From assembly GCA_937952265.1 (NCBI GenBank), contig CALFYW010000055.1, positions 58,478 to 122,477 on the forward strand: DNA of 64,000 nt, read 5' to 3'. The DNA comes from an uncultured bacterium (GTDB lineage Bacteria > Patescibacteriota > Minisyncoccia > Phycocordibacterales > GCA-2401445). This document shows, piece by piece, positions 8,767 to 42,240 of this stretch (the stretch's first letter is position 1; every line of letters begins with the position of its first letter). Position numbers and translations under genes: made by a program. Below the pieces are notes generated by a model. The model saw only the letters and a list, made by a program, of their open reading frames with translations, was not told the DNA's origin and searched no databases.

Positions 8767-8812
8767 CGCAGACGCGCTGCCACGGAAAACAACGTGATCC
8801 CTTACAAGCACC

Positions 8813-11373: not shown

Positions 11374-11958
11374 TCAATCGTTGGTCGCTTGACGCACGAT
11401 TTCAGCCAAATCGAGGTCCATGGCGTCGGTCAAGCGCAGCAACGTATCGAGGCTCGGGATTCGCAAACCTCGTTCGACGTAGCTTACCATCTGCTGAGAG
11501 AGCCCCGCGCGCTCCGCCAACGCGGTCATGGAAAGATTCTGAGCAATGCGCGAGGCTCGCAGCAGTCTGGCAACATTTGCGCAAACCCTTGCTCGGCGGT
11601 CATTTACTGGCACGGGCAAGATGTATGCGCCGTGCGAGTTGACAACACACCTAATAATAGTTAGGGTAAGAGCGCTATGTTTCTTCGCCGACTCGGACCC
11701 GACCCGCACGCCAATGGCGCATCCACCCCGGCACTTCAAAACTGCCCGGACATCTTTGAACTTGAGAACGGTGATTTCGCCATCATCGGTATCGACATGA
11801 CGGCGGACGGCAGGCCGCGCCTGCCCCCGAGTGCCGGCTGCGGTCCCGACGAGCGAATTGTCTGGATCCCGCGCCGCATTCTCGTCAACGCGAAGGGGGA
11901 TATTCCTGATTCGGTGTAGGAGCACGCTGCCATCCCCTTTCCTCCGACACCCACCCAA
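11374..11958 (-). CDS. XRE-family HTH protein (HTH at the C-terminal end of the ORF; true start uncertain, probably much shorter than the ORF)
   Basis: C-terminal 60 aa LRASRIAQNLSMTALAERAGLSQQMVSYVERGLRIPSLDTLLRLTDAMDLDLAEIV matches the XRE HTH pattern. No in-frame ATG lies just upstream of the domain, and the N-terminal extension is compositionally odd. Confidence 0.35.
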   Translation of the reverse strand: MGGCRRKGDGSVLLHRIRNIPLRVDENAARDPDNSLVGTAAGTRGQARPAVRRHVDTDDGEITVLKFKDVRAVLKCRGGCAIGVRVGSESAKKHSALTLTIIRCVVNSHGAYILPVPVNDRRARVCANVARLLRASRIAQNLSMTALAERAGLSQQMVSYVERGLRIPSLDTLLRLTDAMDLDLAEIVRQATND

Positions 11959-17200: not shown

Positions 17201-17319
17201 ATCTTGAGGATGCCGATGGCGACGGCAACCACGACAGCGGAACGGAGACGGATTGGGAAGAATCTGAAAACGGAACAACGGGGACGACAGGCCTGTTGGT
17301 TTTCACGATCCTGGAGTAG
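14266..17319 (+). CDS. Large secreted repeat protein (Sec signal peptide; probable beta-helix-like repeats; acidic Ca-binding-like D-x-D-G-D repeats at the C-terminus)
   Basis: Signal peptide MKLNIPFTLFFVIALAPLITAQG. Length 1017 aa. C-terminal DTDGDGIPDYLEDADGDGNHD resembles thrombospondin-type-3/calcium-binding repeats. Confidence 0.55.
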   Translation: MKLNIPFTLFFVIALAPLITAQGRRTAPETLISRGQYEIRERGPHHNKVGREIVVRDQSGEIVTREQSYVELATGMNFLDEGEWKPADPTIELFEGGAIARNLQQKIIFSPNILDEDGTIDFQTPDGQRLRAAPLALAYFDPVTGQDAIIAVAKDSVGEVHGESRVVYPDAFDGVEADVIYDLRISGFSQDVILREQIPPAEDFGLNSEFARLEILTEFLEAPRPQKEERILWRVEDPVLRGIMATPDFVDEELVFGQTRFGPGRAFSNNQAGLDSPVDEAATPVGKRWVEEDGRMILFESVDFQSILPMLDQLPARQQARIDFNEIDRPELLASSSPDRTVPRRPDLSESEFRGIQIADISRHRPGVILDYTTIDATQTDYTFKGDTTYYIKGSIHLYGTTTLEGGTVIKFDKYNSGSSYYTRLYVNDGFVCNTDFYRPAIVTARDDDTVGEILSESDGTVDAPGHYGYYGFHFNTPTSDISLHHVHFRNTLVACLFYKASTNTHSLKHVTFTQCRYGIYANDTDVEVGNILIDDAYTTAFWGRDTATIDAEHVTVHDAAQIFYDQDANSTLNLTNSLLVDVTTTTHTGSETNVEIIASAAGLFQSVGVGDFYLAPGSPYRDAGTTSIDATLASELRTLTTYPPVELEGDITEDTTLYPHVERDMGIPDLGYHYTPIDYALFVVVKDSTLTINPGTVIVPHNYGSIELQDGSHLEAVGTVSQPIQFARYYASQEQPAEWVNHGYPERSIISRNDGSNTPTANIRFANFNGISGGGYTFYLDNSWWKIQTLDLVDCQIYGNESPFSGGQSPYSNITIKNCLFVRALAKFTHWGVRDVYNNLFSGGTTHVERWSAGAGTWTFKDNSFHSTALTDVYGGTSNSYNGYLGASQGTLSSSSGNDETATTFTYDSGQLGRFYQNSTDLLDEGSQAAGAAGLFHFTTESDNSKDTGTVDIGYHYVAVDSTSGEPDDTDGDGIPDYLEDADGDGNHDSGTETDWEESENGTTGTTGLLVFTILE

Positions 17320-23614: not shown

Positions 23615-24549
23615 GTAAACGATTCGATTCAATATTACGTGGCCTTACGATAGGACAAATTGCTGTATTGAGCACGATGTGGCAGACAGTCGGGCAGAGC
23701 GCGTTAGAGTTGCCTAATGTCCAGAAGTTCCTGGACGCTGCAAATTTAGTCGTTCTCGGTTCGAGTCAAGACGTATTCAAACCCGGCGGTCGAAGTCTTT
23801 TCTGGAGACGACTTGAGCAGCCAATTGTGCTTAAAGGAGAATTCGATCCCACTCATGTTCTCTGGTATGGCTCGACGAAAGAGCGATTCATAGATCAAGG
23901 TTTTTGGGATGCGGGAAAGGTGCATCTGGTATTCCTGAGCCACCGCGTAGATGGGGTTTTTGACACAGCGGGCGATGAGATGTGGGCGCTGGTCGATTTG
24001 GGTGATGGAAAATCGGGAATTCTAGAGATTTGTAGTTCATCAAAGGATATACTACCTCGTAAATCTGGCAGCGTAATGCCTGAGTATGGTGGTAGTGAAG
24101 CGCTAATATCTACGCTATTGACAGAGTCCGACGAGATGAAACGCGTCTTGGCCATAGTTAATTTACACCGATTGAAAGCGAAGGACCGGCGGACCAGAGA
24201 TGCCCTAGTGAGTGCGTTAAGAGACAGGAGTTTTCTTGTAAGATTGTTCGCTGTGCAATCAATGGAAATGTTTAGAGGGCAAGAGGAGCAAATCGTTCCA
24301 CTACTGATCGAAATGCTCAAAGATGAGTACGGAGAGGTGAGGGCGGAATCCGCGAGAGTCTTGATGGGTTTTGGTAATCGTGCAAGGGATGCTCTTGAAC
24401 CGTTGAAGGCTGCATTGAAGGAGGACGGATTAGCAATCATGCAGCAAGCAATTGAGAGGATCGAAACGGACGAATCCGCTGTTGAATCGGGCAAGGGGAA
24501 CAGCGAAGGGGAGGGTCGTGGGCAGGATAGTCAAGGAGCCGTGCCGTAG
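23599..24549 (+). CDS. Putative cognate immunity protein (HEAT/ARM-like repeats)
   Basis: Starts 16 bp before the rhs stop (ATGGGGGTTCCAGTGA). Repeats of the form LVRLFAVQSM...LIEMLKDEYGEVRAESARVL are HEAT-like. Lower GC than the rhs core. Confidence 0.5.
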   Translation: MGVPVSKRFDSILRGLTIGQIAVLSTMWQTVGQSALELPNVQKFLDAANLVVLGSSQDVFKPGGRSLFWRRLEQPIVLKGEFDPTHVLWYGSTKERFIDQGFWDAGKVHLVFLSHRVDGVFDTAGDEMWALVDLGDGKSGILEICSSSKDILPRKSGSVMPEYGGSEALISTLLTESDEMKRVLAIVNLHRLKAKDRRTRDALVSALRDRSFLVRLFAVQSMEMFRGQEEQIVPLLIEMLKDEYGEVRAESARVLMGFGNRARDALEPLKAALKEDGLAIMQQAIERIETDESAVESGKGNSEGEGRGQDSQGAVP

Positions 24550-26873: not shown

Positions 26874-28694
26874 ATGGACAATAATCCGTTTCAGACCCGT
26901 GTTCCTTCTATATGCGGCAATCCGCAGCTGCGCACACCGCAGCAGGAAGCCTATGAACAACTTGCCGCTTTTGCTGGGGAAGATAACCGAAATGAACGCG
27001 AGATCGGAATCGTTCTGCCCGTTGGATGCGGAAAGTCTGGCCTCATCACGTTGGCGCCCTTTGCGTTCCGTGCGAAACGAACGCTCGTCGTAGCGCCGAG
27101 CGTCAAGATCGCTGAACAGCTTCACCACGATTTCGACCCTGCGCGCCAGGACATGTTCTACGTCAAGTGCGGGGTCTTGAATAGTCAACCGTATCCGGAA
27201 CCCGCCGAGATCCGCGGCAAGGCGACGAATCGGGCGGACCTTGTGGAAGCCGATGTTGTGGTGACGAACATTCAGCAGCTTCAGGGCGAGGAAAACCGCT
27301 GGCTTCCGAACCTTCCAGACGACTTCTTTGACCTTATTCTTTTCGACGAAGGACATCACAACGTCGCGCACAGCTGGAACACGTTAAAGGAGAAATTCCC
27401 CACCGCGCGGATCGTTAATTTCAGCGCGACGCCGCTGCGCGCGGACGGCCAGCTCATGGCCGGGCGCATACTGTATTCGTATCCGGTGTTCCGGGCGATC
27501 CAGGAGGCTTACGTCAAGCGCCTGAAGGCGGTTGTTCTGAATCCCCGGACGCTACGCTTTGTCCGACGCGAGGACGGGCAAGAGCTCGAAGTCGACCTTG
27601 ACGAGGTTCGCCGCCTGGGCGAACAGGACGCCGATTTCCGGCGAAGCATTGTGACTTCAACCGAGACGCTGAACACCATTGTCGATGCCTCGATCCGGGA
27701 ATTGGACAAGCGACGCAAGGCAGCACACGACAATCGGCTGAAAATCATTGCTTCGGCTCTTAATTATGAGCATTGCCGGCAGGTCGTCGAGGCTTACCGG
27801 GCGCGCAGCCGTCGCGCCGACTATGTGCATTCCCGCGAGGACAGTGCCGCGAACGATCGCGTGATGCAGCGACTTGAGAATGACGAGCTCGATGTCATCG
27901 TCCAGGTCCGCAAACTCGGCGAGGGGTTCGATCATCCGTATCTTGCTGTTGCCGCAGTGTTCAGCGTGTTCGCGAACCTGTCCCCTTTCGTTCAGTTTGT
28001 CGGTCGCATAATGCGGGTCATCGAGCAAAACGCGCCGGGGAATGTCCTCAACTACGGAACTGTGGTGTTCCATGCCGGGGCCAACGTGGCCAGCCGTTGG
28101 GAAGACTTCCAGCAATACAGCGAGGCCGACCGGAAATTCTTCGACCAGCTTCTGCCGCTCGAAGATCTCGATTTCGGGTCTTCCCACGAGCTGGAAGTCG
28201 AGCCTGAACCGCGTGACTTCGGCGACGGGAAAAGCGTCGATGTACGCGGACAAACGGGCGTTCGACTTGAGGAAATTCCGCTGATCGTGGAAGACGCAGA
28301 AGCCCTGGAAGCGCTGCGAGTTCTGCAGGAGAAGGGCTACACGTCCGACGAAGTGAAGCAGGCGTACGACGAGCTGGAGCCTGTACCAGTGACGCGGGTG
28401 CGGCAGCGGCAGGCGCTGCGCGATGGCCTCGATATGCGTGTTCGCACTGAAACAGCCCGCGTTCTCGCTGAACGTGGCGTCAACGCAGAGGGCCACGACC
28501 TCGACCGCCAGCGGCTCGGCAGGACGAACTTTGTAGTCATAAAGTCCGCCATTGACCGCCAGGTTAATTCGGTAGCCGGAAGGCAGACCGGCGAACGCCA
28601 CGAATTCACGCGCCAGGATCTTGATGCGATCAATGACGATTTCGCGGGAATCGTTGAGAGAGCGGTCAACGAAGTTTTCAATGGCACGAACTAG
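26874..28694 (+). CDS. SF2 DExH helicase (type III restriction Res-subunit-like N-terminal domain plus helicase C domain) with an uncharacterised C-terminal extension of about 200 aa
   Basis: Motif I VGCGKSG, motif II LILFDEGHH, motif III FSATP, helicase-C KLGEGFDHP, motif VI FVGRIMR. Confidence 0.75.
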   Translation: MDNNPFQTRVPSICGNPQLRTPQQEAYEQLAAFAGEDNRNEREIGIVLPVGCGKSGLITLAPFAFRAKRTLVVAPSVKIAEQLHHDFDPARQDMFYVKCGVLNSQPYPEPAEIRGKATNRADLVEADVVVTNIQQLQGEENRWLPNLPDDFFDLILFDEGHHNVAHSWNTLKEKFPTARIVNFSATPLRADGQLMAGRILYSYPVFRAIQEAYVKRLKAVVLNPRTLRFVRREDGQELEVDLDEVRRLGEQDADFRRSIVTSTETLNTIVDASIRELDKRRKAAHDNRLKIIASALNYEHCRQVVEAYRARSRRADYVHSREDSAANDRVMQRLENDELDVIVQVRKLGEGFDHPYLAVAAVFSVFANLSPFVQFVGRIMRVIEQNAPGNVLNYGTVVFHAGANVASRWEDFQQYSEADRKFFDQLLPLEDLDFGSSHELEVEPEPRDFGDGKSVDVRGQTGVRLEEIPLIVEDAEALEALRVLQEKGYTSDEVKQAYDELEPVPVTRVRQRQALRDGLDMRVRTETARVLAERGVNAEGHDLDRQRLGRTNFVVIKSAIDRQVNSVAGRQTGERHEFTRQDLDAINDDFAGIVERAVNEVFNGTN

Positions 28695-29640: not shown

Positions 29641-30141
29641 TCACGCCTCTAAACGATTGAACGTCACAGCAAGCGAAACGGCATCAAACGCGTTCATCCT
29701 ATAATCCTCACCCATCCATGGTCGCCGCCTTGGTGGAACATACGGGGCAAGTTCTGGGAAGCGATGTCCGAGTGCGAGCGCAATTTCACGCTTCGTTCCC
29801 CGCGGCCCGACAATGGCGGTCTGAATGTCGGCGCGAGAAAACTTAGCGGTCCGAACTCCACTCGATGCGGCGAGCCGGCGAAGCTCTCCAATTAAGAGCT
29901 GCACCCGGAGACACCTGCGGGAACCGTCTCCGGCAAAATCCTCGAGCACCAGGATTTCTGGGGAATAGAATTTGATCAATCTCCGGACCTTGCGACAAGT
30001 CTGTGCGGTCTTATCCTCCGGAGTTCCATTTATCCCCCAATCAACCAACGTTTTCGGTCCCTCAAGGACCGCGTAGCCGAACCCTCGACAACCAGGATCA
30101 ATCGCGAGAACACGTGAATTGTGCATTTTCACCCGCCTCAT
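29641..30141 (-). CDS. RuvC-like (Holliday-junction resolvase fold) nuclease
   Basis: N-terminal LAIDPGCRGFGYAVLEG parallels RuvC GIDPGSRVTGYGV. An acidic ILVLED motif follows. Confidence 0.45.
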   Translation of the reverse strand: MRRVKMHNSRVLAIDPGCRGFGYAVLEGPKTLVDWGINGTPEDKTAQTCRKVRRLIKFYSPEILVLEDFAGDGSRRCLRVQLLIGELRRLAASSGVRTAKFSRADIQTAIVGPRGTKREIALALGHRFPELAPYVPPRRRPWMGEDYRMNAFDAVSLAVTFNRLEA

Positions 30142-30497
30142 GATGTTGTTTGGGCGTGTGATTCGATCGCCTCGATGATCGCGGTTAAAAGTTCGAGCTT
30201 TCGTTGAGTTACAGCGCTTGGTTTGTCGCGTTTGATCCGCCGGATGAGGGCCCGGATCCGCCGTGCTAATCGGTTTTCCACCTTCTCATGCGTTCCCGCA
30301 TACAATTCACGCACCGGCGTCCGGAATAGAATCTCCAGGGCGAGCCCCGTTTCCAGTTTGGGTTGTTGGCTAAACCGTTCGTAGCGACACACTTTGGATC
30401 CGCATTGCGTTCCAAGAAGGTAGGCAACTTCCTCTTGTGAAAGGCCGCTTCGCCTTCGGTGCGCCTTGAGATAGTTGGGTAAACGCGAGGAATCCAT
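30138..30497 (-). CDS. XRE-family HTH regulator
   Basis: LKAHRRRSGLSQEEVAYLLG...CRYERF...LETGLALEILF fits the XRE HTH pattern. The ATG at 30497 is in frame, and the stop overlaps the RuvC-like start. Confidence 0.5.
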   Translation of the reverse strand: MDSSRLPNYLKAHRRRSGLSQEEVAYLLGTQCGSKVCRYERFSQQPKLETGLALEILFRTPVRELYAGTHEKVENRLARRIRALIRRIKRDKPSAVTQRKLELLTAIIEAIESHAQTTS

Positions 30498-30791
30498 GGA
30501 GATTTCGAATGTTAGGGAAGTCGAAGTGGCTTCAATTCCATTGTAAACCGGTGCTCGGTCCGACAAAGGAGTGAATTCTTGCGGAATCACGCAAGATCGG
30601 ATCACCACAACCGCGATCAGGACCTCAGCAAGCGGTCTTGGGTGGACTTGGGGGACTTTGGGGATGTCACCACGGACACGACGACTGGCGCCGGCCCGTA
30701 TTTTCGGGCTGTTTGCCCCGCGTGACTTCGCTCAACGCACCCGGAAGAACGTCCCCAATGTCCCCAACGTCCACCCGTGTTCTCCACGTGC

Positions 30792-32129
30792 TTACGCATC
30801 GTGGAGTTTCTCGATTCCGTACCGATCGTAGAGCCGCTTTAACTTCGGGCACTCGTCCGGTGGAATCACGAAAAGCCCGTGACTTTTCCGTGTCTTCACG
30901 TGCAATCGGGACCGGAGAACGCCGCCAATCCAACGCTGCGTGATCTTTCGGTCATAATCCTCACCGTGAAGTTCGCTGAATCGCTGGGTGATCTCGCCGA
31001 CAGAGAGGCGTGGATTTTCTCTCTCACCCGCGATATCACGAATGATCGCGAGAATTTCAGCCTCGGTATCCAGGCCCCGCTCAGCCACCATGTCCTGGTG
31101 GTGTTCTCGCAACACGTTCCGCAACGACGCGCGTAGGTCGGAATCGTCAATGATCGAGAGGAGGGGCGCGAACACTTGGTTCAGTCTGGGCTCAATTCTC
31201 CGGTCAATCAAATCCTCGGAAATGTTCGATTTCCCCAGGTTCCGGAAACGAAAGAGCAGCAGCTTGTTCCGCAATGCCAGCGCCTCTGCTGCGTGCGAAG
31301 CTGGAAGGTTGATGGGAATATCCTCGCGCATCGTGTGCTGCCCCATGTCTTCGGTCAAAAACCGGCTTTCGAGCGCGCGATCTTCAAATGAGCGACGAAC
31401 CGCCACAAGTTTGGGCCCGAACACCTGGTAAGCTCTCGGATTGTATTCGCCCTTTCCATTGCCTTCGCTGCGAAGTACCGGAAAACCCTTCGCATTCCCG
31501 TTGTTGAGGATCTTCGACAGCTCGTTCTTCTCGTCGCTCATCCGGAAGTCGCTCTCGTCGATGATGAGCGTCCCTCCGATCGAGTCGAGGATCCGGAACA
31601 GCGGGGAGGTCGTTGAAGCGCCGCTCGCGAAAATTGGCTTGTAACAAAGCGACCCCACGGTGAGCAAGAAGCGGGTTTTGCCGCAACCAGGCTCCCCACG
31701 GGCGCGCAGGTACGGCAACTCATTGAATTGGTCGTGAACCCAGGTGAAAAGAACATAAAAAGCCGCGATCTGCTCAAATACGGGGCTCAAATCAACATAG
31801 CGGTGAATGAAGCAGCGAATCTCGTCAACAAGAGCTTGTTCTGAGTCATACTCCTCTGGTCCAGTAGGCAAGAGCACAATCTGATTCTTGATCAGGTTGT
31901 TCTGCGCCGAATACGGGACAAGCCGGAGCAGTGGATCCACCGGGACCGTGTCATGGATCTCCCACACGCCGCTCTTCCATCGAACGAAGGCGCTCTGTTC
32001 GCGAATCCTGTTGTAGATCATCTCAATCACAGATCCGTCCGGGAACGATGCCGAGACGGTAGGGACCTTTCGCTCAAGCTTTCGGAAGTCCACCCCTTTC
32101 TCCGGCGGAAAGTCAGGCATAGCATGCAT
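30792..32129 (-). CDS. P-loop NTPase, putative replication/mobilisation ATPase of the element
   Basis: Walker A GEPGCGKTRFLL and Walker B LIIDESDF. Heads an operon with the HTH and RuvC-like genes, divergent from the recombinase. Confidence 0.45.
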   Translation of the reverse strand: MHAMPDFPPEKGVDFRKLERKVPTVSASFPDGSVIEMIYNRIREQSAFVRWKSGVWEIHDTVPVDPLLRLVPYSAQNNLIKNQIVLLPTGPEEYDSEQALVDEIRCFIHRYVDLSPVFEQIAAFYVLFTWVHDQFNELPYLRARGEPGCGKTRFLLTVGSLCYKPIFASGASTTSPLFRILDSIGGTLIIDESDFRMSDEKNELSKILNNGNAKGFPVLRSEGNGKGEYNPRAYQVFGPKLVAVRRSFEDRALESRFLTEDMGQHTMREDIPINLPASHAAEALALRNKLLLFRFRNLGKSNISEDLIDRRIEPRLNQVFAPLLSIIDDSDLRASLRNVLREHHQDMVAERGLDTEAEILAIIRDIAGERENPRLSVGEITQRFSELHGEDYDRKITQRWIGGVLRSRLHVKTRKSHGLFVIPPDECPKLKRLYDRYGIEKLHDA

Positions 32130-32321
32130 GATCGGCTTGATCGTTGTGAGGGAACGTTGAATTCATTGTCATTATATCGCATTCTCCATTAACGGCGAAG
32201 CTCCAAAAGTGGGGATTTCTTGCGCTCGGTATCAATTGGAACTCGACATGAGTTAGAACCCTGCCACTCGCAACAAGTACTCACGTCTTCCGGAGCGCTC
32301 GTGACAGGCTATCCTAAAAAG

Positions 32322-32501
32322 ATGCGTCTTTCAGAAGCTGCAATTAAGAAGTTCCGTGAGATTTATCGCCGCGAATATGGCGTGGATATCTCGCCGGAAC
32401 GAGCGGAAGAAATGGGAATCCGCTTGCTTGAACTGACGCAACTCCTGCTACAGAATCCCAACCCCGACGAACGTAGCGATGATTCGGTTATTAAAGGCTG
32501 A
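32322..32501 (+). CDS. Small hypothetical protein (possible recombination directionality factor)
   Basis: A 59-aa ORF located between the divergent ATPase operon and the serine recombinase. No motif seen; placement is the only evidence. Confidence 0.2.
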   Translation: MRLSEAAIKKFREIYRREYGVDISPERAEEMGIRLLELTQLLLQNPNPDERSDDSVIKG

Positions 32502-32574: not shown

Positions 32575-34290
32575 ATGGCTTCGTTCATCATCTATTGTAG
32601 AAAATCTACCGAATCAGAAGATCGCCAAGTACTATCCATTGAATCTCAGGTGAACGAGATCCGTGAACTTGCCCGGAAGCTCGGGATTTCCGTATCAACC
32701 GTTCTTACGGAATCTAAATCCGCGAAGGCGCCTGGTCGCCCGATCTTCAACGACATGATACAACGCGTTTACCGCGGAGAGGTTCAAGGGATTCTATGCT
32801 GGAAACTTGATCGCCTTGCGCGCAATCCCGTTGATGGGGGATCCCTCATCTGGGCACTCAAACAGCATGGCCTCCAGATCATCACCCCTACTCAGCGTTT
32901 CAGCCAAATCGAGGATAATACCATTCTGATGTATGTTGAGTTCGGGATGGCACAGAAATATGTTGATGATCTCAGCCGGAACGTGAAGCGCGGGCTCAAA
33001 ACAAAAGCTGAGAAGGGCTGGTGCCCGGGGCTCTCTCCCTTGGGGTATCTCAACGTCGTCACAAAGTCCGGTGAACGTCAACTAGTCATGGATCCCGACC
33101 GCTTTCATATCATTCGCCGAATCTGGGATCTTATGCTTTCGGGTAACTACTCAACCACAAAGATCCTTGAGATCGCCAACGGAAGCTGGGGATTGCGCAC
33201 GCGCCCAATGCGCCGACAAGGGGGAAAGCCGTTGGCACGCAGTGGCCTGTATCGGCTCCTCTCCAATCCCTTCTACTATGGCTCCTTTGAATACCCCCGG
33301 AATTCTGGCTCATGGCACCGCGGGAATCACGAACCAATGATCACTCAAGCGGAATTCGACCGAGTCCAAATCCTTCTTGGGAAGAGGACCTCCAATTCCC
33401 CACGAAATACCTGTCGGTTCACCTTCAGCGGCATGATCCATTGTGGTGAATGTGGCGGAGCGGTCACGGCCGAGGAGAAACACCAAATCATCTGTAGCTC
33501 CTGTCGAGTGAAGTTCGCGCGCGGAAACCGTGATCAGTGTCCGGAATGCAACGTTCGCATTGATCGTATGGAGAAACCCATTCTCCTCCATTACGTCTAT
33601 TACCACTGTGCCAAAAGCAAGAATCCCCGGTGTCGACAACGGGGAATTGAAACAAAGAAGCTCGAACGGCAGATCCACGAGTTCCTTCAAAGGCTCGAGC
33701 TTGCGAGTGAATTCCGTGACTGGGCGCTCGATTTTCTAGAAGCGTTATCGGAGAACCAATTCACCAATGCGCAGGTCGTTCGCGCTTCGCAGGAAAATAC
33801 CCTTCGGACGTGCCTTAAACACCTTGACGGACTGATCACGCTTAAGACAGCTCCGGAGAACGCTCAAGGAAACCTCATTTCCAACGAAGAGTATGCGCGT
33901 CAACGCAGCACACTCTTATCTCAGAAACAATCCTTGGAAGATGCGCTCTCTAAAAAACCGCCAACTTCAATCGATATCCGAAACGCTGCTATCTCGGTGT
34001 TTGACTATGCCGATACAGCAGCAAAGCGTTTCAAATCTGGTGACGCATCCACCAAACGAGCAATACTCACGCGCGTTGGTTCGAACCTACGACTAACCGA
34101 CAAAATGCTCAGTATTGAAGCCACGGATCCCTTTCATATATTCCTCGAATACCAGAAAGGCTCTGAACATGAAAACGATGAGTTCGAACCTGACTTTCAT
34201 GGCTCTGTTGAGTGGGATTTGGAGCGCTTTGAACCATATCGTCCTATTGGGCTCCGGCGGCAGGATTCGAACCTGCGACCAATCGGTTAA
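32575..34290 (+). mobile_element. Large serine recombinase (resolvase/invertase catalytic domain, recombinase domain, zinc ribbon, coiled coil)
   Basis: N-terminal IIYCRKSTESEDRQVLSIESQ carries the catalytic Ser in the YxRxST context. A Cys4 zinc ribbon CGECGG...C is present, and length is about 570 aa. The ORF's last roughly 15 codons read through the tRNA-Asn 3' end, so the true stop may lie earlier. Confidence 0.85.
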
Positions 34291-34323
34291 CAGCCGACTG
34301 CTCTACCACTGAGCTACACCGGA
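34249..34323 (-). tRNA. tRNA-Asn (anticodon GUU)
   Basis: Reverse complement folds as a cloverleaf: acceptor UCCGGUG/CGCCGGA (U1-A72 as in E. coli tRNA-Asn), D-arm GCUC-AGUGGUA-GAGC, anticodon stem GUCGG/CCGAU with loop CUGUUAA, T-arm GCAGG-UUCGAAU-CCUGC, discriminator G. The 3' tail reads GCCCA, one extra C relative to CCA. Confidence 0.8.
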
Positions 34324-34368
34324 ATAGCATGTGCATTGTAGCCATAAAAAGCGAAATGCGCAAATGTA

Positions 34369-34887
34369 TTGTGCCTCGAATGGTATGCTTTTGGAAACAA
34401 AAATGGTAGTATAATGGTATATATGGAAGGGAATCGGGACAGTCTTATTATTGACAGTTCAGCATTCTCTCACTCGGGTAATATACCTCCTCGTTATACT
34501 TGTGACGGAAAAAATATTTCTCCGCCCCTTGCTTTTTATGGTATTCCTGAAGGAACCACTTCACTCGTCTTGATTATGGATGATATCGATGCGGTGGCGG
34601 GCGTTTGGGATCATTGGATTGTCTTTAATATTCCTCCGAGTACAAATGTTATAGAAGAGGGGAGAGAGCCATCAGGGGTCGCCGGCGCCCGCACTGATGG
34701 TGAAAAAGGGTACTATGGGCCATGTCCTTCAGATGGAAAAGAGCACCGATATGTATTTCGAGTATACGCCCTCGATACACGGCTCGACCTTCCTGAAGGA
34801 GCAACGAAAAACGAAGTACTCTCTTCTCTTGAAGGACACTGTATTGCACAAGCAACACTAATGGGTAAATTTCGACGTGGCATATGA
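34369..34887 (+). CDS. PEBP/YbhB-YbcL family protein (start probably at MVYMEG, 34414)
   Basis: IPPRYTCDGKNISPPLAFYGIPEGTTSLVLIMDDIDA plus the downstream CDGH-type region. Confidence 0.7.
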   Translation: MCLEWYAFGNKNGSIMVYMEGNRDSLIIDSSAFSHSGNIPPRYTCDGKNISPPLAFYGIPEGTTSLVLIMDDIDAVAGVWDHWIVFNIPPSTNVIEEGREPSGVAGARTDGEKGYYGPCPSDGKEHRYVFRVYALDTRLDLPEGATKNEVLSSLEGHCIAQATLMGKFRRGI

Positions 34888-35114
34888 GTGAGAAGCATAT
34901 TCGGGTACTTGTTGAGGCAGGGTCAAAACATGATGAGGTAAGCGCGCTTTCGACGCATTTTCTGGTGAAGGTTAAAGAATCGCCAGCAGGGAATCAGGCA
35001 AATCGGAAAGTGGTAGGGCTTCTTGCAACGTATTTTAATGTTCCTACGAATGCAGTACATATTGTTTCCGGGCACCATGCGTCCCGAAAGACAATTGCCA
35101 TTAAAAGAGCCTAG
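34884..35114 (+). CDS. DUF167 (YggU-like) protein
   Basis: About 76 aa with ...ESPAGNQANRKVVGLLATYFNVPTNAVHIVSGHHASRKTIAI, fitting the DUF167 pattern. Confidence 0.65.
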   Translation: MSEKHIRVLVEAGSKHDEVSALSTHFLVKVKESPAGNQANRKVVGLLATYFNVPTNAVHIVSGHHASRKTIAIKRA

Positions 35115-35152
35115 TGTGATGTTCGATTATTCTTAAATGTATAACTTATTTT

Positions 35153-35515
35153 ATGGTCAATATTAAAGCTACGAACATTGAGTTAACTCCCGCAATTACC
35201 TCCTACGTTGCAAAAAAACTTCAGTATACGCGTAAATTAGTTGATCTTGATAGTGGAAAGGTAACGGCGCTACTTGAAGTAGGGAAGACCACGAAGCATC
35301 ATCGCTCCGGAGATATCTTTCGCGCAGAAATTAACTTAAAGGTTGCGGGGAAGCAGTTTCGAGCGGTTGCGAAACGGGATGATCTCTATGCCGCAATTGA
35401 CGAGATGAAAAACATCTTGCTTGCTGAATTAAAGCGCGACAAAGAGGCGCGTATTACTTCTGTAAGAAAGGGAGGCGCGAAGTTAAAATCAATGATGCGT
35501 AGTCTTAAAGAGTAA
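35153..35515 (+). CDS. hpf: Ribosome hibernation promoting factor / RaiA family
   Basis: INIKATNIELTPAITSYVAKKL...FRAEINLKVAGKQFRAVAKRDDLYAAIDEM is the canonical short-HPF sequence pattern. Confidence 0.8.
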   Translation: MVNIKATNIELTPAITSYVAKKLQYTRKLVDLDSGKVTALLEVGKTTKHHRSGDIFRAEINLKVAGKQFRAVAKRDDLYAAIDEMKNILLAELKRDKEARITSVRKGGAKLKSMMRSLKE

Positions 35516-35537
35516 TTAGTGGTACCATATCGAGTAT

Positions 35538-36203
35538 ATGCATTTGCGACAAAAAATACACCCATTATTTACGTGGATCTTCCTTATTATCAGTGCGGTG
35601 TGGACAGGGTATCTCTATCAGTTAGTCGATCGTTTTTCTGATTATAGCCAAGAGCTTATCGCACCGTTGCCAGTTGTTTCAATTGGTTCTGTTCCGCTTA
35701 CTATCCATAATACAAATTCAGCTATGTCTACCGCTATTTTAAAAACGTCATTAGGGGATATTACTCTTGAACTGTTTCCTGACAAAGCACCCAAGACAGT
35801 CGAGAATTTTTTGACGCTTGCTCGAAGTGACTTTTATGATCAGACAAAATTCCACCGCGTGATTCCTGATTTTATGATACAAGCAGGAGACCCTAATACT
35901 CGCGGAGATGAGGTGTCCACCTATGGAACAGGCGGGCCTGATTATGTATTTGAAGATGAGATACATAACGTTCCAATTACTCGTGGTATTCTTGCGATGG
36001 CGAACCGAGGCCCGAATACGAATGGTAGCCAGTTCTTTGTTGTGACGGCGGAAGCAACACCATGGCTTGATGGGCTGCATACGGTTTTTGGGAAGGTGGT
36101 AGAAGGTATGGATGTCGTTGACCGTATTAGCCACGTGAAGACCACCGGCCCTGATCGGCCAATTGAACCGGTAGTCTTAATGGACGTGATCATTGAAGGC
36201 TAG
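35538..36203 (+). CDS. Cyclophilin-type peptidyl-prolyl cis-trans isomerase with an N-terminal membrane anchor
   Basis: FHRVIPDFMIQAGDP, GTGGPDY, MANRGPNTNGSQFFV. Confidence 0.85.
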   Translation: MHLRQKIHPLFTWIFLIISAVWTGYLYQLVDRFSDYSQELIAPLPVVSIGSVPLTIHNTNSAMSTAILKTSLGDITLELFPDKAPKTVENFLTLARSDFYDQTKFHRVIPDFMIQAGDPNTRGDEVSTYGTGGPDYVFEDEIHNVPITRGILAMANRGPNTNGSQFFVVTAEATPWLDGLHTVFGKVVEGMDVVDRISHVKTTGPDRPIEPVVLMDVIIEG

Positions 36204-36206
36204 TTG

Positions 36207-37073
36207 TTAAACCTTCATTTGTTTAGAGAATAGTTCAAATGGAATTTCTCTTTTTCCTTCTGGAATGACACGCTCGATAATAAGCTGATTATCTTGGTAT
36301 GATGCCTTTGTAATGATAACCCGAAGGGGTTTGTGGTGTTGATGTATAAAAAAGAACGGACGTAGTGAGGAAGATTGGAATGCTTGAATTTTGAGAAAGT
36401 TTTTATACGGATCTGCGTCACGCGAGATAAGGGCATCCTCTTTCGTAAATTTTTTGGTGTAGGTCGCCTTGGTTTCGTCTTGGGGGACTGCTTTAATTTC
36501 GCCTTGTATCCATGCGGGCAGTGTCTTTTTTAAGAGCATCGCGCCTTTTCGCGCGAGCATTTCTTCAAGCGCTGGAGCGGGAGGCCAAGATTCAATCGTT
36601 ACTTTTTCTTGTGCGATAATAGGGCCATGGTCCATTTTTTCATCCATTACCATGAGAGAAACCCCTGTCTTTTTTTCATCATTTAGAATTGCAGATTGAA
36701 TTGGAGAAGCACCTCGAAGTCTTGGAAGGAGCGAGGGGTGTATATTTATCGCCCCATGAGTAGGGAGCGTAATAATTGATTGAGGAAGTATCCTACCAAA
36801 AGATGCCACGACAAAGAGTGGGTGTTGGGTAAGCGCTGGACACGATTCAAGAATTGAGGATTTTTTCGGGGGATCACACAGTGGGATATTTCGCTCTTGT
36901 GCCCAACGCTTAACTTCTGAAGGGGTTATGCGCAGGTTGCGTCCTTGTGGCGTATCAGGCTGTGTCACGACGAGTGCGGGGAGTAACCCCTCTTTTTCAA
37001 GCTCTTCTAGAACAACCACTGACATTCGCGAGGTTCCAAAAAATGCAAAAGATGGTATCAACGGGTGAGACAT
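36207..37073 (-). CDS. fmt: Methionyl-tRNA formyltransferase
   Basis: N-terminal FAFFGTS...VVTQPDTPQGR, and INIHPSLLPRLRGASPIQSAI. Lies directly downstream of def. Confidence 0.85.
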   Translation of the reverse strand: MSHPLIPSFAFFGTSRMSVVVLEELEKEGLLPALVVTQPDTPQGRNLRITPSEVKRWAQERNIPLCDPPKKSSILESCPALTQHPLFVVASFGRILPQSIITLPTHGAINIHPSLLPRLRGASPIQSAILNDEKKTGVSLMVMDEKMDHGPIIAQEKVTIESWPPAPALEEMLARKGAMLLKKTLPAWIQGEIKAVPQDETKATYTKKFTKEDALISRDADPYKNFLKIQAFQSSSLRPFFFIHQHHKPLRVIITKASYQDNQLIIERVIPEGKREIPFELFSKQMKV

Positions 37074-37078
37074 AGGTG

Positions 37079-37633
37079 TTATGAGGGGGTGTTTTGTGCT
37101 CGGTCATCCGGAGGAATCTCCTGGAGTTCTTGAGCATGGTCGATAAAAAGCACGCCATGTAAGTGGTCGATTTCATGCTGAAAAATTTGGGCACGTAAAC
37201 CACTTGCGCCTTCACGAAAAATTTTTCCATATTCATCATAGGCCTCGATAGTGACCTGTTGTGCTCGGGATACTTTTCCGTATAGCCATCGAACACTTAA
37301 ACACCCCTCTTCCACATATTGTTTTTTCCTTGATTTTTTAATGATTCGAGGATTAATGAAAACACGATGATCTTTCGGAGGATCTTTTTTCACCTCCTCA
37401 TCAGTACGAAAGGAAGGATGGCGCCCAAATTGTATCTTTTCTGATATGATAAAGATTTGAAGCGAAATACCAATTTGTGGCGCAGCAATTGCAACGCCAT
37501 CTTCTTGGGTTCGTAATGCACGTTGCATATCCTGGATATATCCTTGTATAGCACTGCTCTGTATCTCGTGACGCGCTACTTCACGCGCGTGAAGACGTAG
37601 TGTCGGGTGTTCTTTTGAGAGAATTTTTTTCAT
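37079..37633 (-). CDS. def: Peptide deformylase
   Basis: GVAIAAPQIG, EGCLS, QHEIDHLHG motifs. Confidence 0.9.
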   Translation of the reverse strand: MKKILSKEHPTLRLHAREVARHEIQSSAIQGYIQDMQRALRTQEDGVAIAAPQIGISLQIFIISEKIQFGRHPSFRTDEEVKKDPPKDHRVFINPRIIKKSRKKQYVEEGCLSVRWLYGKVSRAQQVTIEAYDEYGKIFREGASGLRAQIFQHEIDHLHGVLFIDHAQELQEIPPDDRAQNTPS

Positions 37634-37812
37634 GCCTGCTGATAGGTGTTTCTTTGTGGTGTAATGGTAAGAAAATATAAGAGAAAACCTCGGATCCTTC
37701 TCTTCAGGTAAACAAGCGGGGGATTACCCGGAGCATGGCGAGGGAAGAAGGGATCCGAGGGGTGGGTTCTAGAGATTACTATATAAGATTTTTAAAAGGC
37801 TGTCTATTTTTG

Positions 37813-39693
37813 TTAACGCAAGTTCTGTGGATCAACATTAATCGTATAGTAAGGGGGGAGTTCTTTGAGGAGAGAAAAGATGTCCGTCTCTTTAATTTCT
37901 TGATGCGGTATACGCAGTAAGATAGTAATCATTCCTTTTCCTTTCTCATTCCTCATTCCCGAAAACATTTCAATAGATTCTGGATTGATCCACGTTTCTA
38001 TTTTCTGTTTCAGAGAATCAAGATCCTCAGGTGTTCCAGGCGTGCTTATCTTAATTAAGAGGGAGAACGGGGGATAATTAAATTGCTTTCGCATTTCTTC
38101 TTCGGCACGATAAAAATCGATCATATTTCCTCTCAGAGCGTGGTCAAGCACTGCATGCGCGCGTTGCCTGGTCTGAAGTATAAAAGAACGTTGCGTGATC
38201 GATCGGAGTTTGATGATAATACGAAACACCCGTTCATTCATTCGAAAATCAGGAATTGCAAAAAGGCTATCAAGTGAGACCACCGCGGTATTTTCAAGAG
38301 TGTGTGAGATATGGGAAATTGCCATCTCCGTGCCAAGAAGTATGCTTCCTGGAGCATTAAAAAATTTCTCCATCTCCTCATTGATTTTTTTGCTCGTAGT
38401 GGTTGTATCCCCATCAATCCGGAACAGTGCTACCTGAGGGAACCATTCTTTAAGCGTTTCTTCAACGAGCTCAATACCAATACCTAAAGGCTCAAGTTTC
38501 CACCCATCACAGGTTCGGCAGGTGACTCGGCTGCTCCATGAGCGTCCACAGTGATGGCATAGAAAAATGTTTTCCCGAGGTCGCTGGTAGAGTACGACAG
38601 GAGTATCACAGTGCTCGCAGGTATGGGTAGTTCCACAATCTCCGCATACGGTAATCGGAGCAAATCCTTTTCGAGAAACAAGGATAAAGAGGTGCTCATT
38701 ATGTTCTTTGGTGTGGGTAATGAGTTCAGCAAGCTTCCCACTTATGAGTGAGAATCCCTCTTTTTGATCAAGGGGGCGCATATCGATAATTTCTGACTGA
38801 GCAGATGAGAGTGATCGAAATTTTGGCGGAGCAATTTCTCCAAGTTCACCGTCATGGTATCTTGAAATAGTTTCAACTCGCATCACCATATCCCCAAATA
38901 CCAAATTCGCACGCATCTCCTCTGAGAGAAACTCTGCAAACGTTCTAATATCAATAAAGGGGCGCTTCAGGGTTTTATAGGCTCGAGAACCTTCATTTTC
39001 GATGATAATGGTTCCAATATCTTCTCGGGGAATCGCAAGGAAGCTTCCGGTCCCGATGATTAACACCGGATGTTCCTCAGTGATAATTTTCTTCCAGAGG
39101 GAGAGAATTTCTTTTTTACTAATCCCGCTATGAAGGATATACGTGAACTCTTCGATACCTCGCTCGAGAAACACGCGAATACGCTCAATGTCATGAGTGG
39201 TGGGGAGGCAGAAAAAAACAGAAGCGTTGCGCGCAAACGATTCCCGAATAAGGCTTTTGTAATGCGCAATTCTCTCTTCATCGTCAGCTTGGAGGATAAA
39301 TTTGTGGTACCGATCGTTCAATCTTTTTTTGTGGCCGATTTTTTTCGGAAGATTTTTATAATTGTCGTAGATGACTTTGGGCACCATACTTGCCAGAACA
39401 CTTCCGGTTGAAGCGACGGTGTAGTTGCTCATTCGTTTAGATGTCTTAAGGAATGCTTCAGAGAGAACTTGTTGTGCTGATCCAGAAGCAATTTTCTTGA
39501 GCATAAAGCCCTGCGAGCGAAGCTCACTCTTATGCGCTTCCGCGGGGTGAGACTCAATCACAAGCGCGGGGACCCGCTTGCTTTTTAAAGGTACTAAAAC
39601 CATTGCGCCGGGAGCGATATCATCCGAGCTAAAGTATTGCAATATCTCTACACCGATACCACGGCTGATTGGTATGACGTCAAGAATTTTCAT
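37813..39693 (-). CDS. priA: Primosomal protein N' (PriA helicase)
   Basis: Helicase motifs plus the characteristic Cys-rich zinc region CGDCG...CEHCD...CHHCG...CRTCDG. Confidence 0.8.
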   Translation of the reverse strand: MKILDVIPISRGIGVEILQYFSSDDIAPGAMVLVPLKSKRVPALVIESHPAEAHKSELRSQGFMLKKIASGSAQQVLSEAFLKTSKRMSNYTVASTGSVLASMVPKVIYDNYKNLPKKIGHKKRLNDRYHKFILQADDEERIAHYKSLIRESFARNASVFFCLPTTHDIERIRVFLERGIEEFTYILHSGISKKEILSLWKKIITEEHPVLIIGTGSFLAIPREDIGTIIIENEGSRAYKTLKRPFIDIRTFAEFLSEEMRANLVFGDMVMRVETISRYHDGELGEIAPPKFRSLSSAQSEIIDMRPLDQKEGFSLISGKLAELITHTKEHNEHLFILVSRKGFAPITVCGDCGTTHTCEHCDTPVVLYQRPRENIFLCHHCGRSWSSRVTCRTCDGWKLEPLGIGIELVEETLKEWFPQVALFRIDGDTTTTSKKINEEMEKFFNAPGSILLGTEMAISHISHTLENTAVVSLDSLFAIPDFRMNERVFRIIIKLRSITQRSFILQTRQRAHAVLDHALRGNMIDFYRAEEEMRKQFNYPPFSLLIKISTPGTPEDLDSLKQKIETWINPESIEMFSGMRNEKGKGMITILLRIPHQEIKETDIFSLLKELPPYYTINVDPQNLR

Positions 39694-40572: not shown

Positions 40573-42114
40573 CTATTTACCAGCCGATAACAGAGTAATT
40601 TTTGCGCCAAGTGAGTTAAGTCGAGCGATAATATCCTCATAGCCTCGATTGATGCTGTAGATATTGCGAAGTGTCGATACTCCTTTTGCCGCGAGCATAC
40701 CAATAAGGATAATAGCTCCAGGTCGAAGGGCGGGCGGAGTAATTACTTCATTCGCGATTAGATTCGTGGGGCCGGTAATATAGATTCGGTGTGGATCCGC
40801 AAGAATAGTTTCTGCTCCGAGTTTATCGAGTTCTTTGTAATAAATTGCCCGTTCCTCATAAACCCAATCGTGAATAAAGGTTTGACCTTTTGCCTGGGTT
40901 GCAATCACCGCAAAAAAAGGAAGGTTGTCGATATTGAGCCCTGGGTACGGGCGCGATTCTATTTTCTCTTCAAGGGCGCTTAGCGTACTCGGAAATGTCT
41001 TTATGTCTACCAGATTCGTTTTTTCATTAAGTGCTTTATACCTTTTAAGAATGGTGTATTTAAATCCCATTTTCTCGAGTTTCAGAAGCTCGAGTTCAAG
41101 GAAGTCGATAGGGCATCGGCGGATGGTGATGGCGGATCGAGTTACAATTGCTGCGGAGAGAAAGAACATCGCTTCAATCGGGTCTTCGCTCACCGCATAG
41201 GTAATATCAGTATTAATATCGGGTTTTCCTTCTATCGTAAGTGTGGTCGTACCAATTCCTTGAATAGTAACTCCGAGAGTCTCCAAGAAGAAACATAAAT
41301 CTTGCACTTGGTAATTTGCCGATGCAAATTTGATTACGGTTTTCCCAGGGATACGAGCCGCCGCCATAATGGCATTTTCGGTAACGGTATCACCAGATTC
41401 ATACAGCACTACTTCATTGGGGGTGAGTGTGTGGCGACTGATATGGTAATCTTCTTCTTTCGAGACAATAGAGACCCCAAATCGCTCAAGCGCAAAAAGG
41501 TGGGGCTTAACCGTGCGTGAGCCAAGTTTACATCCACCCGGGTGGGGTAGTGAGAATTTCTTAAAATAATGAATAAGCGGCCCAAAGAGGAGCGCAATAC
41601 TGCGTGTACGGACCGCAGAGGCGCGATTGATATGTGTGATGTCGATATGATCTGGCGGAGTAATTTCCATTGCACTGTCGTTCCATCGAACTATGACACC
41701 GATACTTTCGAGCACTTCAACAAGCCGAAACACCTCTTCAATACGTGGCATGTTCTTGAGCGTGGTCTTTCCTTGGTTGAGTAGTGAGGCAGCCATAAGG
41801 GCAACCGCACCATTTTTTGATGTCTTAATGGTTACCTCGCCTTTAAGTTTATGTCTCCCTTCAATTTGAATATTAATCGCATCATTACCGAGAGTGATCA
41901 CAGGTGTGTTGAGGGCACTACTTACCCGCGCAATCATTTCAGTGCTCATATTTTGCTCACCTCGCTCAATACGGGCAATCGCGCTTTGGGTGGTTTGAAC
42001 GCGTGTCGCGAGTTCGTGTTGCGTAATTCCTTTTTTGTCACGAATCCTCTGAATCCTCTCTCCCAGGGCTTCTGACCCTGGGGTGAGCACCTCTTTTCTA
42101 ACTCCTTTTTTCAT
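40573..42114 (-). CDS. murA: XRE-HTH domain fused to UDP-N-acetylglucosamine 1-carboxyvinyltransferase (MurA)
   Basis: Residues about 15-75 form an XRE HTH (LGERIQRIRDKKGITQHELATRVQTTQSAIARIERGEQNMSTEMIARVSSAL). The remainder aligns with MurA along its length (KLKGEVTIKTSKNGAVALMAA..., C-terminal NRGYEDIIARLNSLGAKI). Start set at MKKGV (ATG at 42114); the ORF-track extension to 42156 runs through a palindrome. Confidence 0.8.
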   Translation of the reverse strand: MKKGVRKEVLTPGSEALGERIQRIRDKKGITQHELATRVQTTQSAIARIERGEQNMSTEMIARVSSALNTPVITLGNDAINIQIEGRHKLKGEVTIKTSKNGAVALMAASLLNQGKTTLKNMPRIEEVFRLVEVLESIGVIVRWNDSAMEITPPDHIDITHINRASAVRTRSIALLFGPLIHYFKKFSLPHPGGCKLGSRTVKPHLFALERFGVSIVSKEEDYHISRHTLTPNEVVLYESGDTVTENAIMAAARIPGKTVIKFASANYQVQDLCFFLETLGVTIQGIGTTTLTIEGKPDINTDITYAVSEDPIEAMFFLSAAIVTRSAITIRRCPIDFLELELLKLEKMGFKYTILKRYKALNEKTNLVDIKTFPSTLSALEEKIESRPYPGLNIDNLPFFAVIATQAKGQTFIHDWVYEERAIYYKELDKLGAETILADPHRIYITGPTNLIANEVITPPALRPGAIILIGMLAAKGVSTLRNIYSINRGYEDIIARLNSLGAKITLLSAGK

Positions 42115-42122
42115 AGTAAAAG

Positions 42123-42144
42123 TATATAGCATATATGCTATATA
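42123..42144. promoter_or_regulatory. 22-bp perfect palindrome TATATAGCATATATGCTATATA immediately upstream of the HTH-murA start; candidate operator
   Basis: Read directly from the sequence. Lies about 9 bp upstream of the ATG at 42114, in the 120-bp divergent spacer between murA and mreB. Confidence 0.45.
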
Positions 42145-42240
42145 TGCAAACCTCATTAGCTCTCTTACATACCCCCCCTTCTTATTTTATAGGTTTAATG
42201 CTTGTTTTTTCGTATCTTACCTATGCTATAATAGGTGTTC

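Follow-up and report, generated by a model that had tools for sequence, protein, structure and literature searches.

A Large Serine Recombinase Gene That Reads into tRNA-Asn: A Probable attR of an Integrative Element in a Patescibacteria Chromosome

The Locus and Its Two Sides

The stretch of DNA considered here, hereafter called the window, comprises 64,000 nucleotides (positions 58,478 to 122,477) of GenBank contig CALFYW010000055.1, assembly GCA_937952265.1, from an uncultured bacterium of the Patescibacteriota. In reversed orientation it corresponds to positions 124640-188639 of NODE_26, a metagenome contig of 247,116 bp in ENA ERZ869940. Near its middle, the gene of a large serine recombinase (LSR), lying at the edge of a tract richer in GC, reads into the 3′ part of a tRNA-Asn gene on the opposite strand (Table 1). 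GC content is 0.529 in positions 1-34247 and 0.445 in positions 34325-64000, the values in 1-kb windows being 0.530 ± 0.037 and 0.444 ± 0.017, respectively (Mann-Whitney p = 1.5e-11). In the long open reading frames (ORFs), GC at the third codon positions (GC3) ranges from 0.49 to 0.70 left of the break and from 0.32 to 0.43 right of it, and the tetranucleotide profile switches between the 30-35 kb bin and the 35-40 kb bin. Windowed GC, GC3 and tetranucleotide profiles thus bear out the composition break that an earlier reading of the sequence (the original prediction) had placed near 34.3 kb; indeed, all its factual statements, on GC, the tRNA, the recombinase ORF and the read-through, hold. 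Its term “GC-rich” is correct with respect to the host but not in absolute terms, the element having a GC content of ~0.47-0.60 and its host, a bacterium of the candidate phyla radiation (CPR), of 0.44.

The assignment of the host follows from PriA, for which every named best match is a Patescibacteria/Paceibacterota protein (43-48% identity). Besides the genes listed in Table 1, the right side encodes a protein with a helix-turn-helix (HTH) and a MurA-like part, and MreB; judged by its genes, it is housekeeping DNA of Patescibacteria (Paceibacterota), while the left side has the content of mobile-element DNA.

The tRNA-Asn(GUU), which ARAGORN places on the minus strand, extends from nucleotide 1 at 34323 to the discriminator G73 at 34252 and, as predicted, its 3′ end faces the GC-rich side. 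The 3′ part reads ...CCGCCGGAG-CCCA, with CCCA at 34251-34248, and the gene is devoid of an encoded CCA end. The LSR ORF is the only long ORF abutting this tRNA; over its final 43 nt it is antisense to the 3′ part of the tRNA, which is the read-through that had been noted. Residues 1-558 correspond to the body shared by the family, and the junction codons, CCT ATT GGG CTC CGG, encode P557 I G L R. Codons 560-571, encoding LRRQDSNLRPIG and followed by the stop, lie antisense to the acceptor and T arm, and the stop codon TAA to the anticodon loop. On the minus strand nothing resembling a terminator was seen behind the tRNA, so that transcription from it could continue into the LSR gene in antisense orientation.

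Two copies of the 10-mer TTCGAACCTG are present at a distance of 83 nt, one in the codons F-E-P of the LSR and the other, at 34266-34275, in the T loop and stem of the tRNA. E538 and P539 of the LSR copy are invariant across the family, and the homologues keep (A/T)TCGAACCTGA at this site, third codon positions included, which suggests a constraint at the DNA level.

The Recombinase and Its Family

By every sequence criterion tested, the enzyme qualifies as a bona fide large serine recombinase. The catalytic domain (Resolvase, PF00239) is recognized at residues 5-148 above the Pfam cut-off (E 4e-22), and it is followed by the Recombinase domain PF07508 (30.5 bits; cut-off 21.1) and the zinc ribbon Zn_ribbon_recom PF13408 (29.9 bits; cut-off 25.3). 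In the family alignment R9, S11, D79, R80 and R83 are invariant, as are the zinc-ribbon cysteines 290, 293, 307, 310, 322 and 325. Relatives in the PDB include 3g13, the SPbeta integrase SprA/YokA (SprA, 9dxh) and TP901-1 Int (3bvp). An AlphaFold2 (AF2) model, with a mean predicted local distance difference test score (pLDDT) of 68, comprises the catalytic domain, a long E helix, the recombinase domain, the zinc ribbon and a coiled coil, the latter predicted as long helices 378-425 and 437-459 after the ribbon strands (pLDDT ~80-90). Because residues 529-571 are predicted to be disordered (pLDDT ~30), the splitting of the gene described below would remove no folded domain.

More than 7500 homologues were found, the closest having 55-56% identity. 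Most are 595-632 aa long and carry an extra C-terminal tail, with the consensus ...S-x-x-P-x-x-L-G-x-x-D-D-V-R-T...(V/I)Y-x-F-F, or LIYAHFKKEF in one subfamily. A prophage origin was considered and rejected, the relatives of the LSR being nearly absent from viral contigs (2 matches in 2.9 million).

Recurrence of the Junction in Related Loci

One genome per species was scanned, giving 80 related LSR loci (these and other loci and contigs are designated here by L numbers). In 20 of these 80 the LSR gene borders at its 3′ end on a tRNA of the minus strand, and the ORF enters the tRNA in all 18 junctions inspected for this feature. The tRNAs are of seven kinds: Gln (6), Asn (5), Trp (3), Asp (3), Tyr (1), Ser (1) and Leu (1); the same tRNA-Gln junction is present in two assemblies, L104/L105. 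CPR labels are carried by 14 of the 20 loci, and none of the Verrucomicrobia-labelled loci among the 80 has a tRNA adjoining the LSR.

The tRNA is entered in an identical frame in the 19 junctions inspected and in L095, where an LSR 54% identical to that of the window lies at another tRNA-Asn: the T loop is read as D/E/G-S/L-N, and a codon begins with the complement of the discriminator. For the window, L017, L039, L068 and L095, this codon is the third after a conserved proline. Over 20 independent junctions, the chance of such an agreement of frame is ~(1/3)^19. At the junction, tRNA positions 74-76 are CA, CCA or CCC depending on the element, with the exception of L095, which has T at position 74.

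A Complete Relative with Both Junctions

Both ends of an element, together with the split gene, are observed in L017, a complete 7-kb element within an 813-kb Paceibacterota contig. GC steps from ~0.25-0.35 to 0.5 at ~700-740, and the LSR gene (6001-7740) ends in a tRNA-Gln. Positions 723-929 of the same strand, with the LSR start 5.2 kb downstream of them, encode MLRGLDDVRAYGHKAERAAALIYAHFKG, which corresponds to the family tail (E 2e-14 with a hidden Markov model, HMM). Compared with the full-length 595-aa homologue P0047, encoded in L099, identity is 84% for the LSR body (aa 1-559 in both proteins) and 80% for the detached tail (P0047 aa 560-589). At the nucleotide level, L017 5366-7695 matches L099 9411-11695 (78% identity) and L017 739-818 matches L099 11679-11758 (86%); much the same modules are found unsplit in GC-rich, Verrucomicrobia-like genomes. 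Since body and tail each match P0047/L099, the L017 gene is split between codons 559 and 560, and its self-partitioning by integration is seen directly in this comparison.

The L017 attL reads ...CATTTAAAA TGCTG AGAGGACTGGACGATGTTCGAGCC and the attR reads ...GTCCAAACG TGCTG GGGGACTTGGACTCGAACC, only TGCTG being common to both; the attP reconstructed from them approximates a real, intact sequence of L099, GTCCAAACG TGCTG GGAGGACTGGACGATGTTAGAACC. The core corresponds to tRNA positions 75-71 and thus comprises two bases of the trailer, the discriminator and two bases of the acceptor. L068, at a tRNA-Tyr, provides a second attL/attR pair, with the core CTGTGC. The P′ arm mimics the tRNA, GGAC...T(T/C)(A/C)GA(A/G)CC resembling GGAC-TCGAACC, with the outer motif 3-4 nt further from the core than in B′, and the P arm bears an inverted GTCC; this layout of motifs in P/P′ and B′ appears to follow the half-site logic of serine integrases. 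The possibility that the element supplies the 3′ half of the tRNA, in the style of tyrosine integrases, was discarded, as the P′ copy of L017 (CTGAGAGGACTGGAC) cannot pair with the 5′ strand of the tRNA; it is also ruled out by the switch of the L017-L099 similarity at the core.

Proposed Origin of the Window Junction

The LSR gene body of the window ends at the same codon and in the same register as that of L017. Position ~34250 is probably an attR, left when an integrative element was inserted by its own LSR at the 3′ tip of tRNA-Asn in a Patescibacteria (Paceibacterota) chromosome, with attP located inside the LSR gene. As sketched from the relatives, attP would lie between codons 559 and 560, its P arm being the end of the gene body and its P′ arm the coding sequence of the last ~36-70 residues, which would mimic the tRNA acceptor and T arm. 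The tRNA gene's 3′ end would serve as attB, with acceptor and T arm as B′ and the native 3′ trailer as B. Strand exchange would take place within the common 5-6 bp core, at tRNA positions 71-75, the dinucleotide 74-75 being the probable site. After integration, the tRNA body would remain intact and wholly host-derived, while its 3′ trailer and terminator would be replaced by antisense of the LSR gene; the LSR, deprived of its natural tail, would end in a tRNA-antisense peptide (GLRRQDSNLRPIG in the window), and the detached tail would mark the far end, attL. The read-through of the ORF into the tRNA would then be due to the location of attP inside the recombinase gene.

With the register of L017 and L068, the core in the window (Table 1) would have element DNA to its left and the host tRNA to its right, so that the tRNA body (34252-34323) would be host DNA and everything left of ~34250 element DNA. 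G73-CCCA would straddle this junction: the earlier suggestion that the GCCCA tail may mark the att site is compatible with the crossover at positions 74-75 derived from the relatives. The integrative element at a tRNA 3′ end, with the integrase next to the att site, which had also been proposed, is sustained by the ~20 recurrent loci and by the evidence from L102, empty sites and a compensatory stem change given below. Conversely, the expected att repeat of the terminal 15-45 nt of the tRNA does not apply to this family, as in the relatives attL and attR have no more than 5-6 bp in common, without any duplication of the tRNA body.

Some observations weigh against this interpretation. Neither the window nor the 15.6 kb adjoining it on the left yielded the attL of this element, and for this reason the crossover in the window is placed by analogy; the same crossover as in L017 and L068 would have produced it. 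Around 100 of the top 119 family members retain an intact tail and lie in long GC-rich contigs; integration via an in-gene attP is therefore not the sole state of these elements. In addition, Logan unitigs of three runs (L009, L002 and L003) stop inside the tRNA, at 34305 and 34288, and the far-left part of the tract looks, from its genes, like Gram-negative chromosomal DNA, an odd cargo for a CPR bacterium. The last two points are taken up in the following sections.

In GC-rich, Verrucomicrobia-like loci, a stand-alone second core plus tail was observed downstream of a full-tail LSR, on the same strand and 1.3-4.5 kb away (L099 14848-14930; L018 ~9192; L049 ~9413; L064 ~9273; L092 ~7934; L035 ~6101). 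In these copies the similarity begins exactly at the core; they could mark the attL of an adjacent element, belong to a satellite that carries a tail, or serve as a second site of recombination. In L062, the 34-nt direct repeat GCTAACCTACAGGGACGATGTTCGAACCTAAAAT occurs at ~3556, at the stop of an LSR ending in ...RDDVRT, and again at ~5701, 2.1 kb downstream.

Contiguity of the Junction

The change of composition exactly at the tRNA, in a metagenome assembled with de Bruijn graphs, raises the question of whether two unrelated genomes were joined inside a common tRNA-Asn, in which case the LSR-tRNA adjacency would involve DNA of another organism. The unitig ends at 34305 and 34288 point in this direction; however, the two break points share only 18 nt, too few for a single join of two sequences at k = 31. 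Unitigs from two runs extend from the LSR through 58 nt of the tRNA with no branch at the crossover. The ends inside the tRNA imply that other sequences in the samples, namely tRNA-Asn genes, share 30-mers with the window tRNA, and the breaks are better explained by such genes of other community members. Their reading as an 18-bp identity block between attP and attB was rejected, because L017 and L068 have their crossovers at the 3′ tip of the tRNA and, with k = 31, a block of 30 nt would have to be shared. A unitig of an unrelated run (L096), corresponding to L095, likewise ends within the tRNA and not at the element boundary.

A search of the JGI metagenomes with a 36-mer of the window tRNA-Asn retrieved four loci, whose tRNA-Asn genes are 67/72 identical to that of the window; the exact 72-nt sequence had no match in these metagenomes. 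With respect to the four sister tRNAs, the acceptor pair 5-67 has changed from C-G to G-C, a compensatory change, and pair 6-66 from G-C to U.G, while an anticodon-stem G.U pair is common to all. These changes co-vary; therefore the 5′ strand on the host side and the 3′ strand on the LSR side belong to one gene. In three of the loci (L100, L101 and L103) terminator hairpins directly follow G73, which identifies them as empty sites and supplies the comparison with unoccupied loci that had been called for.

The fourth locus, L102 (JGI Ga0136601), has a syntenic tRNA-Asn, HPF, fmt, def, priA, murA-like and mreB, with 28-40% amino acid identity to the window flank. Its contig starts 22 nt beyond the tRNA, with TGGGACATTCTGTCCTACTGGG joined to CTCC; at the junction, L102 reads ...GTCCTACTGGG and the window ...GTCCTATTGGG, each followed by CTCC, with 10 of 11 bases equal. 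L102 thus carries the same junction in another CPR lineage and from another sequencing project. Together with the codon register repeated in ~20 other loci, the pair changed on both strands and the absence of Verrucomicrobia-labelled loci with a tRNA next to the LSR, this renders an assembly chimera, which the original prediction had kept as its alternative, highly improbable.

Extent and Cargo of the Tract

The tract richer in GC is at least 50 kb long and may be composite. Its far end was sought in several ways. No copy of the 3′ part of the tRNA-Asn was found elsewhere in the window, in L005 (10 kb further left) or in L098 (a further 5.6 kb), and a search of the window, L005, L004 and L098 for repeats of the tRNA 3′ end yielded only chance 11-mers (3, with ~1.5 expected); this agrees with the earlier statement that the left att repeat is not in the window and extends it by 15.6 kb. 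The detached LSR tail is also absent from the window and these 15.6 kb, as judged by tblastn, the motif D[DE][VA]R[TA], and an HMM of 94 tails, the same model that detects the L017 tail.

From ~-3.8 kb to 34.25 kb the GC content of the tract is heterogeneous (0.47-0.60), whereas in L098 1-11780, i.e., from 15.6 to 3.8 kb left of position 1, it is uniform (0.56-0.61), with an AT-richer gap at L098 11800-12800. The far-left part encodes an extracytoplasmic function (ECF) sigma factor, a PEGA-domain protein, a GT9 lipopolysaccharide heptosyltransferase/mannosyltransferase and a Ser/Thr kinase with WD40 repeats; the GT9 protein is 55-61% identical to many proteins of ~850 aa, its best named match being from Limisphaerales. 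It is therefore conceivable, if rather doubtful, that the attR is real but that the tract is not one CPR insertion, being instead a tandem or nested array, or an assembly path that switches to a GC-rich Verrucomicrobia-like copy or chromosome. The two GC regimes and the gap between them, genes typical of Gram-negative chromosomes, the occurrence of close relatives of the LSR module in GC-rich Verrucomicrobia-like contigs, and the fact that the Logan contig breaks off 15.6 kb to the left of position 1 all speak for this. Nevertheless, the 50 kb examined contain no second recombinase or detached tail, the Logan unitigs of those runs offer no alternative full-tail continuation after the LSR body, and large elements can bear such cargo.

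GC content in L017, L026, L099, L105 and the window element is ~0.47-0.57 whatever the host, higher than in CPR flanks (0.25-0.45) and lower than in the flank of L099 (0.63); this composition seems to be proper to the elements and not to reflect a donor genome.

Table 1. Features of the window discussed in the text (positions are those of the window).
Feature	Position	Strand	Evidence
Subtilase S8	174-1562	-	Pfam
Papain-family C1 peptidase	3407-5386	+	Pfam
Type IV secretion system (T4SS) coupling-protein-like ATPase	7453-8814	-	TrwB_AAD_bind 34.9 bits; NCBIfam scores far below curated cut-offs
SWIM protein	8831-9661	+	Pfam/NCBIfam
PD-(D/E)XK nuclease	9658-10494	+	Pfam/NCBIfam
RadC	10491-10952	+	Pfam/NCBIfam
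HTH protein	11374-11958	-	Pfam/NCBIfam
DUF932 protein	12540-13448	-	Pfam/NCBIfam
Toxin block: 1017-aa protein; RHS/YD-repeat protein (~2100 aa); HEAT-repeat protein	14266-17319; ~17363-23614; 23599-24549	+	Pfam RHS_repeat, HEAT_2
ResIII/DEAD-box helicase (cargo)	26874-28694	+	PF04851, E 2e-26
RuvC-like nuclease and HTH protein	29641-30608 (29641-30141; 30138-30497/30608)	-	Weak RuvC, HTH_31 matches
445-aa protein, LSR-proximal module	30792-32129	-	No Pfam/NCBIfam match
66-aa ORF directly upstream of LSR	32301-32501	+	Gene calls; no Pfam match
LSR, 571 aa	32575-34290	+	Pfam PF00239, PF07508, PF13408; AF2 model
Predicted P arm of attR, 3′ coding end of LSR body	34171-34247	+	Includes Pro557 (34243-34245) and TTCGAACCTG (34183-34192, codons F-E-P)
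tRNA-Asn(GTT)	34248-34324	-	ARAGORN and sequence
Predicted crossover region (attR core), GGGCT on + strand, tRNA positions 76-72	34249-34253		Register common with L017, L068
Host flank (Paceibacterota): PEBP, DUF167, HPF, cyclophilin, fmt, def, priA	34423-39693		Pfam; synteny with L102

The genes next to the LSR recur in related loci. An ORF of 54-87 aa occupies the position of the 66-aa upstream ORF in the gene calls of L001, L010, L012, L095, L099 and L104; it is a speculative candidate for a regulator or directionality factor. ORFs adjoining the LSRs of L026 and L095 match the 445-aa protein with 68% identity over 205 aa and 55% identity over 425 aa, respectively, and homologues of the RuvC-like/HTH module adjoin LSRs in L010, L077 and L105. 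Giant RHS/YD-repeat toxins are found a few kb from the LSR in the window, in L012 (1-1644), in L026 (175-2781) and in L104/L105 (1-7567), where they have Colicin-DNase/WHH ends, and the toxin-bearing related elements include ones in CPR contigs; the HEAT-repeat protein that follows the RHS protein in the window could be its immunity protein.

The genes between 7453 and 13448 resemble a transfer and anti-restriction block. Neither a relaxase nor VirB4 was detected with Pfam/NCBIfam among the window ORFs scanned, which cover the element only in part, and therefore the designation of integrative and conjugative element is not justified. The two peptidases at the left end of the window are of secreted type and still lie within the GC-rich tract. 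As for the host side, the gene at 40573-42156 on the minus strand codes for a 527-aa protein in which a Cro/C1-type HTH at the N-terminus is fused to an EPSP-synthase/MurA-type domain, and L102 has a 507-aa ORF at the syntenic position. The host part also contains a second tRNA, tRNA-Glu(CTC), at 59433-59505 on the minus strand, without a recombinase nearby.

The truncated enzyme of the window would probably still work. That the insertion is instead old and fixed, with the tail-less LSR inactive like the archaeal “suicidal” integrases and the element reduced to an immobile genomic island, is unlikely. Such a state would agree with the loss of the natural tail and its conserved hydrophobic motif (VYxFF, or its subfamily variant), with the lack of observed attP or attB variants, and with the missing relaxase and VirB4. 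However, the LSR ORF is intact and keeps all the family-invariant residues, the composition of the element has not drifted toward that of the host, and the lost tail is predicted to be disordered; moreover, with the closest homologue at 55-56% identity, the relatives give no estimate of the age of the insertion.

Comparison with Known Integration Systems

The LSR shares its domain order, i.e., a resolvase catalytic domain with a serine nucleophile, a recombinase domain, and a zinc ribbon with a coiled-coil insert, with the large serine integrases SPbeta SprA/YokA, Listeria A118/LI Int, TP901-1, Bxb1, phiC31, CcrAB and XisF. As in these systems, the att sites, here seen in L017 and L068, are short and have few common bp. 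The LI integrase reportedly has a spacing difference between attP and attB, which is echoed by the outer motif of P′ lying 3-4 bp further out than that of B′. Unlike the known large serine integrases, the enzymes described here target the tRNA 3′ tip, have attP inside the integrase ORF, reside in CPR hosts, and are nearly absent from viral contigs. In a survey of 2168 genomes published in 2020, serine integrases were at t(m)RNA genes in 14 of 297 cases, which were called previously unreported and in need of proof (PMC7192596).

The location of att within the integrase gene, and its partition upon integration into a tRNA gene, are shared with the SSV-type “suicidal” integrases of SSV1, pTN3 and pT26-2 (PMC8371274). 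Those, however, are archaeal tyrosine recombinases that lose essential parts, whereas here a bacterial serine recombinase exchanges a tail of ~12-70 residues predicted to be disordered. According to a review, self-disrupting recombinases are found only in archaea, in the form of SSV-type tyrosine integrases (PMC8371274).

Classical tRNA islands of tyrosine integrases (Islander/TIGER) are similar in that the integrase adjoins the tRNA 3′ end, composition breaks at the tRNA, and the tRNA stays functional; in contrast to them, the enzyme is here a serine recombinase, the 3′ segment of the tRNA is not duplicated at the far end, and the crossover is at the discriminator/CCA position instead of the anticodon or T loop. 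No Phage_integrase (tyrosine recombinase) match was obtained among the window ORFs scanned. Among bacteria, the IntP of Myxococcus phage Mx8 has its attP in the 3′ end of int, and integration into a tRNA gene alters the C-terminus of the integrase; Mx8 Int is, however, a tyrosine integrase, with a longer core and the classical duplication of the tRNA 3′ segment. In an incomplete search of the literature, no description was found of serine integrases at CPR tRNA genes, or of an in-gene attP in bacteria or for serine integrases, Mx8 being the bacterial tyrosine analogue known to us. Taken alone, the window is an ordinary-looking island boundary; it is the mechanism at the level of the family that is unusual.

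Significance

Tentatively, these LSRs might be the first bacterial serine-type integrases with the attachment site in their own gene, in which a tRNA-mimicking P′ arm doubles as the coding sequence of the disordered tail, and the elements might have a broad host range and constitute a route by which genes pass between the CPR bacteria, as ultra-small episymbionts, and large free-living bacteria that may be their hosts. To our knowledge, serine integrases were thought to avoid tRNA genes; if the proposal is true, elements carrying RHS toxins, with a GC content of ~0.5 of their own, use the CCA end of at least seven CPR tRNA species as their insertion site. This would contradict the statement that confines self-splitting recombinases to archaea, and it would offer a worked example of the co-evolution of attP and attB half-sites, where one half-site doubles as a protein-coding tail. 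Genome engineering relies heavily on serine integrases, and with a clade recognizing the universally conserved acceptor and T arm and cutting at the CCA position, natural landing sites would be available in almost any genome. For the CPR bacteria, whose mobile elements are poorly known, it would mean that they can carry insertions of tens of kb with toxin and transfer genes, the nearest relatives of which sit in another phylum.

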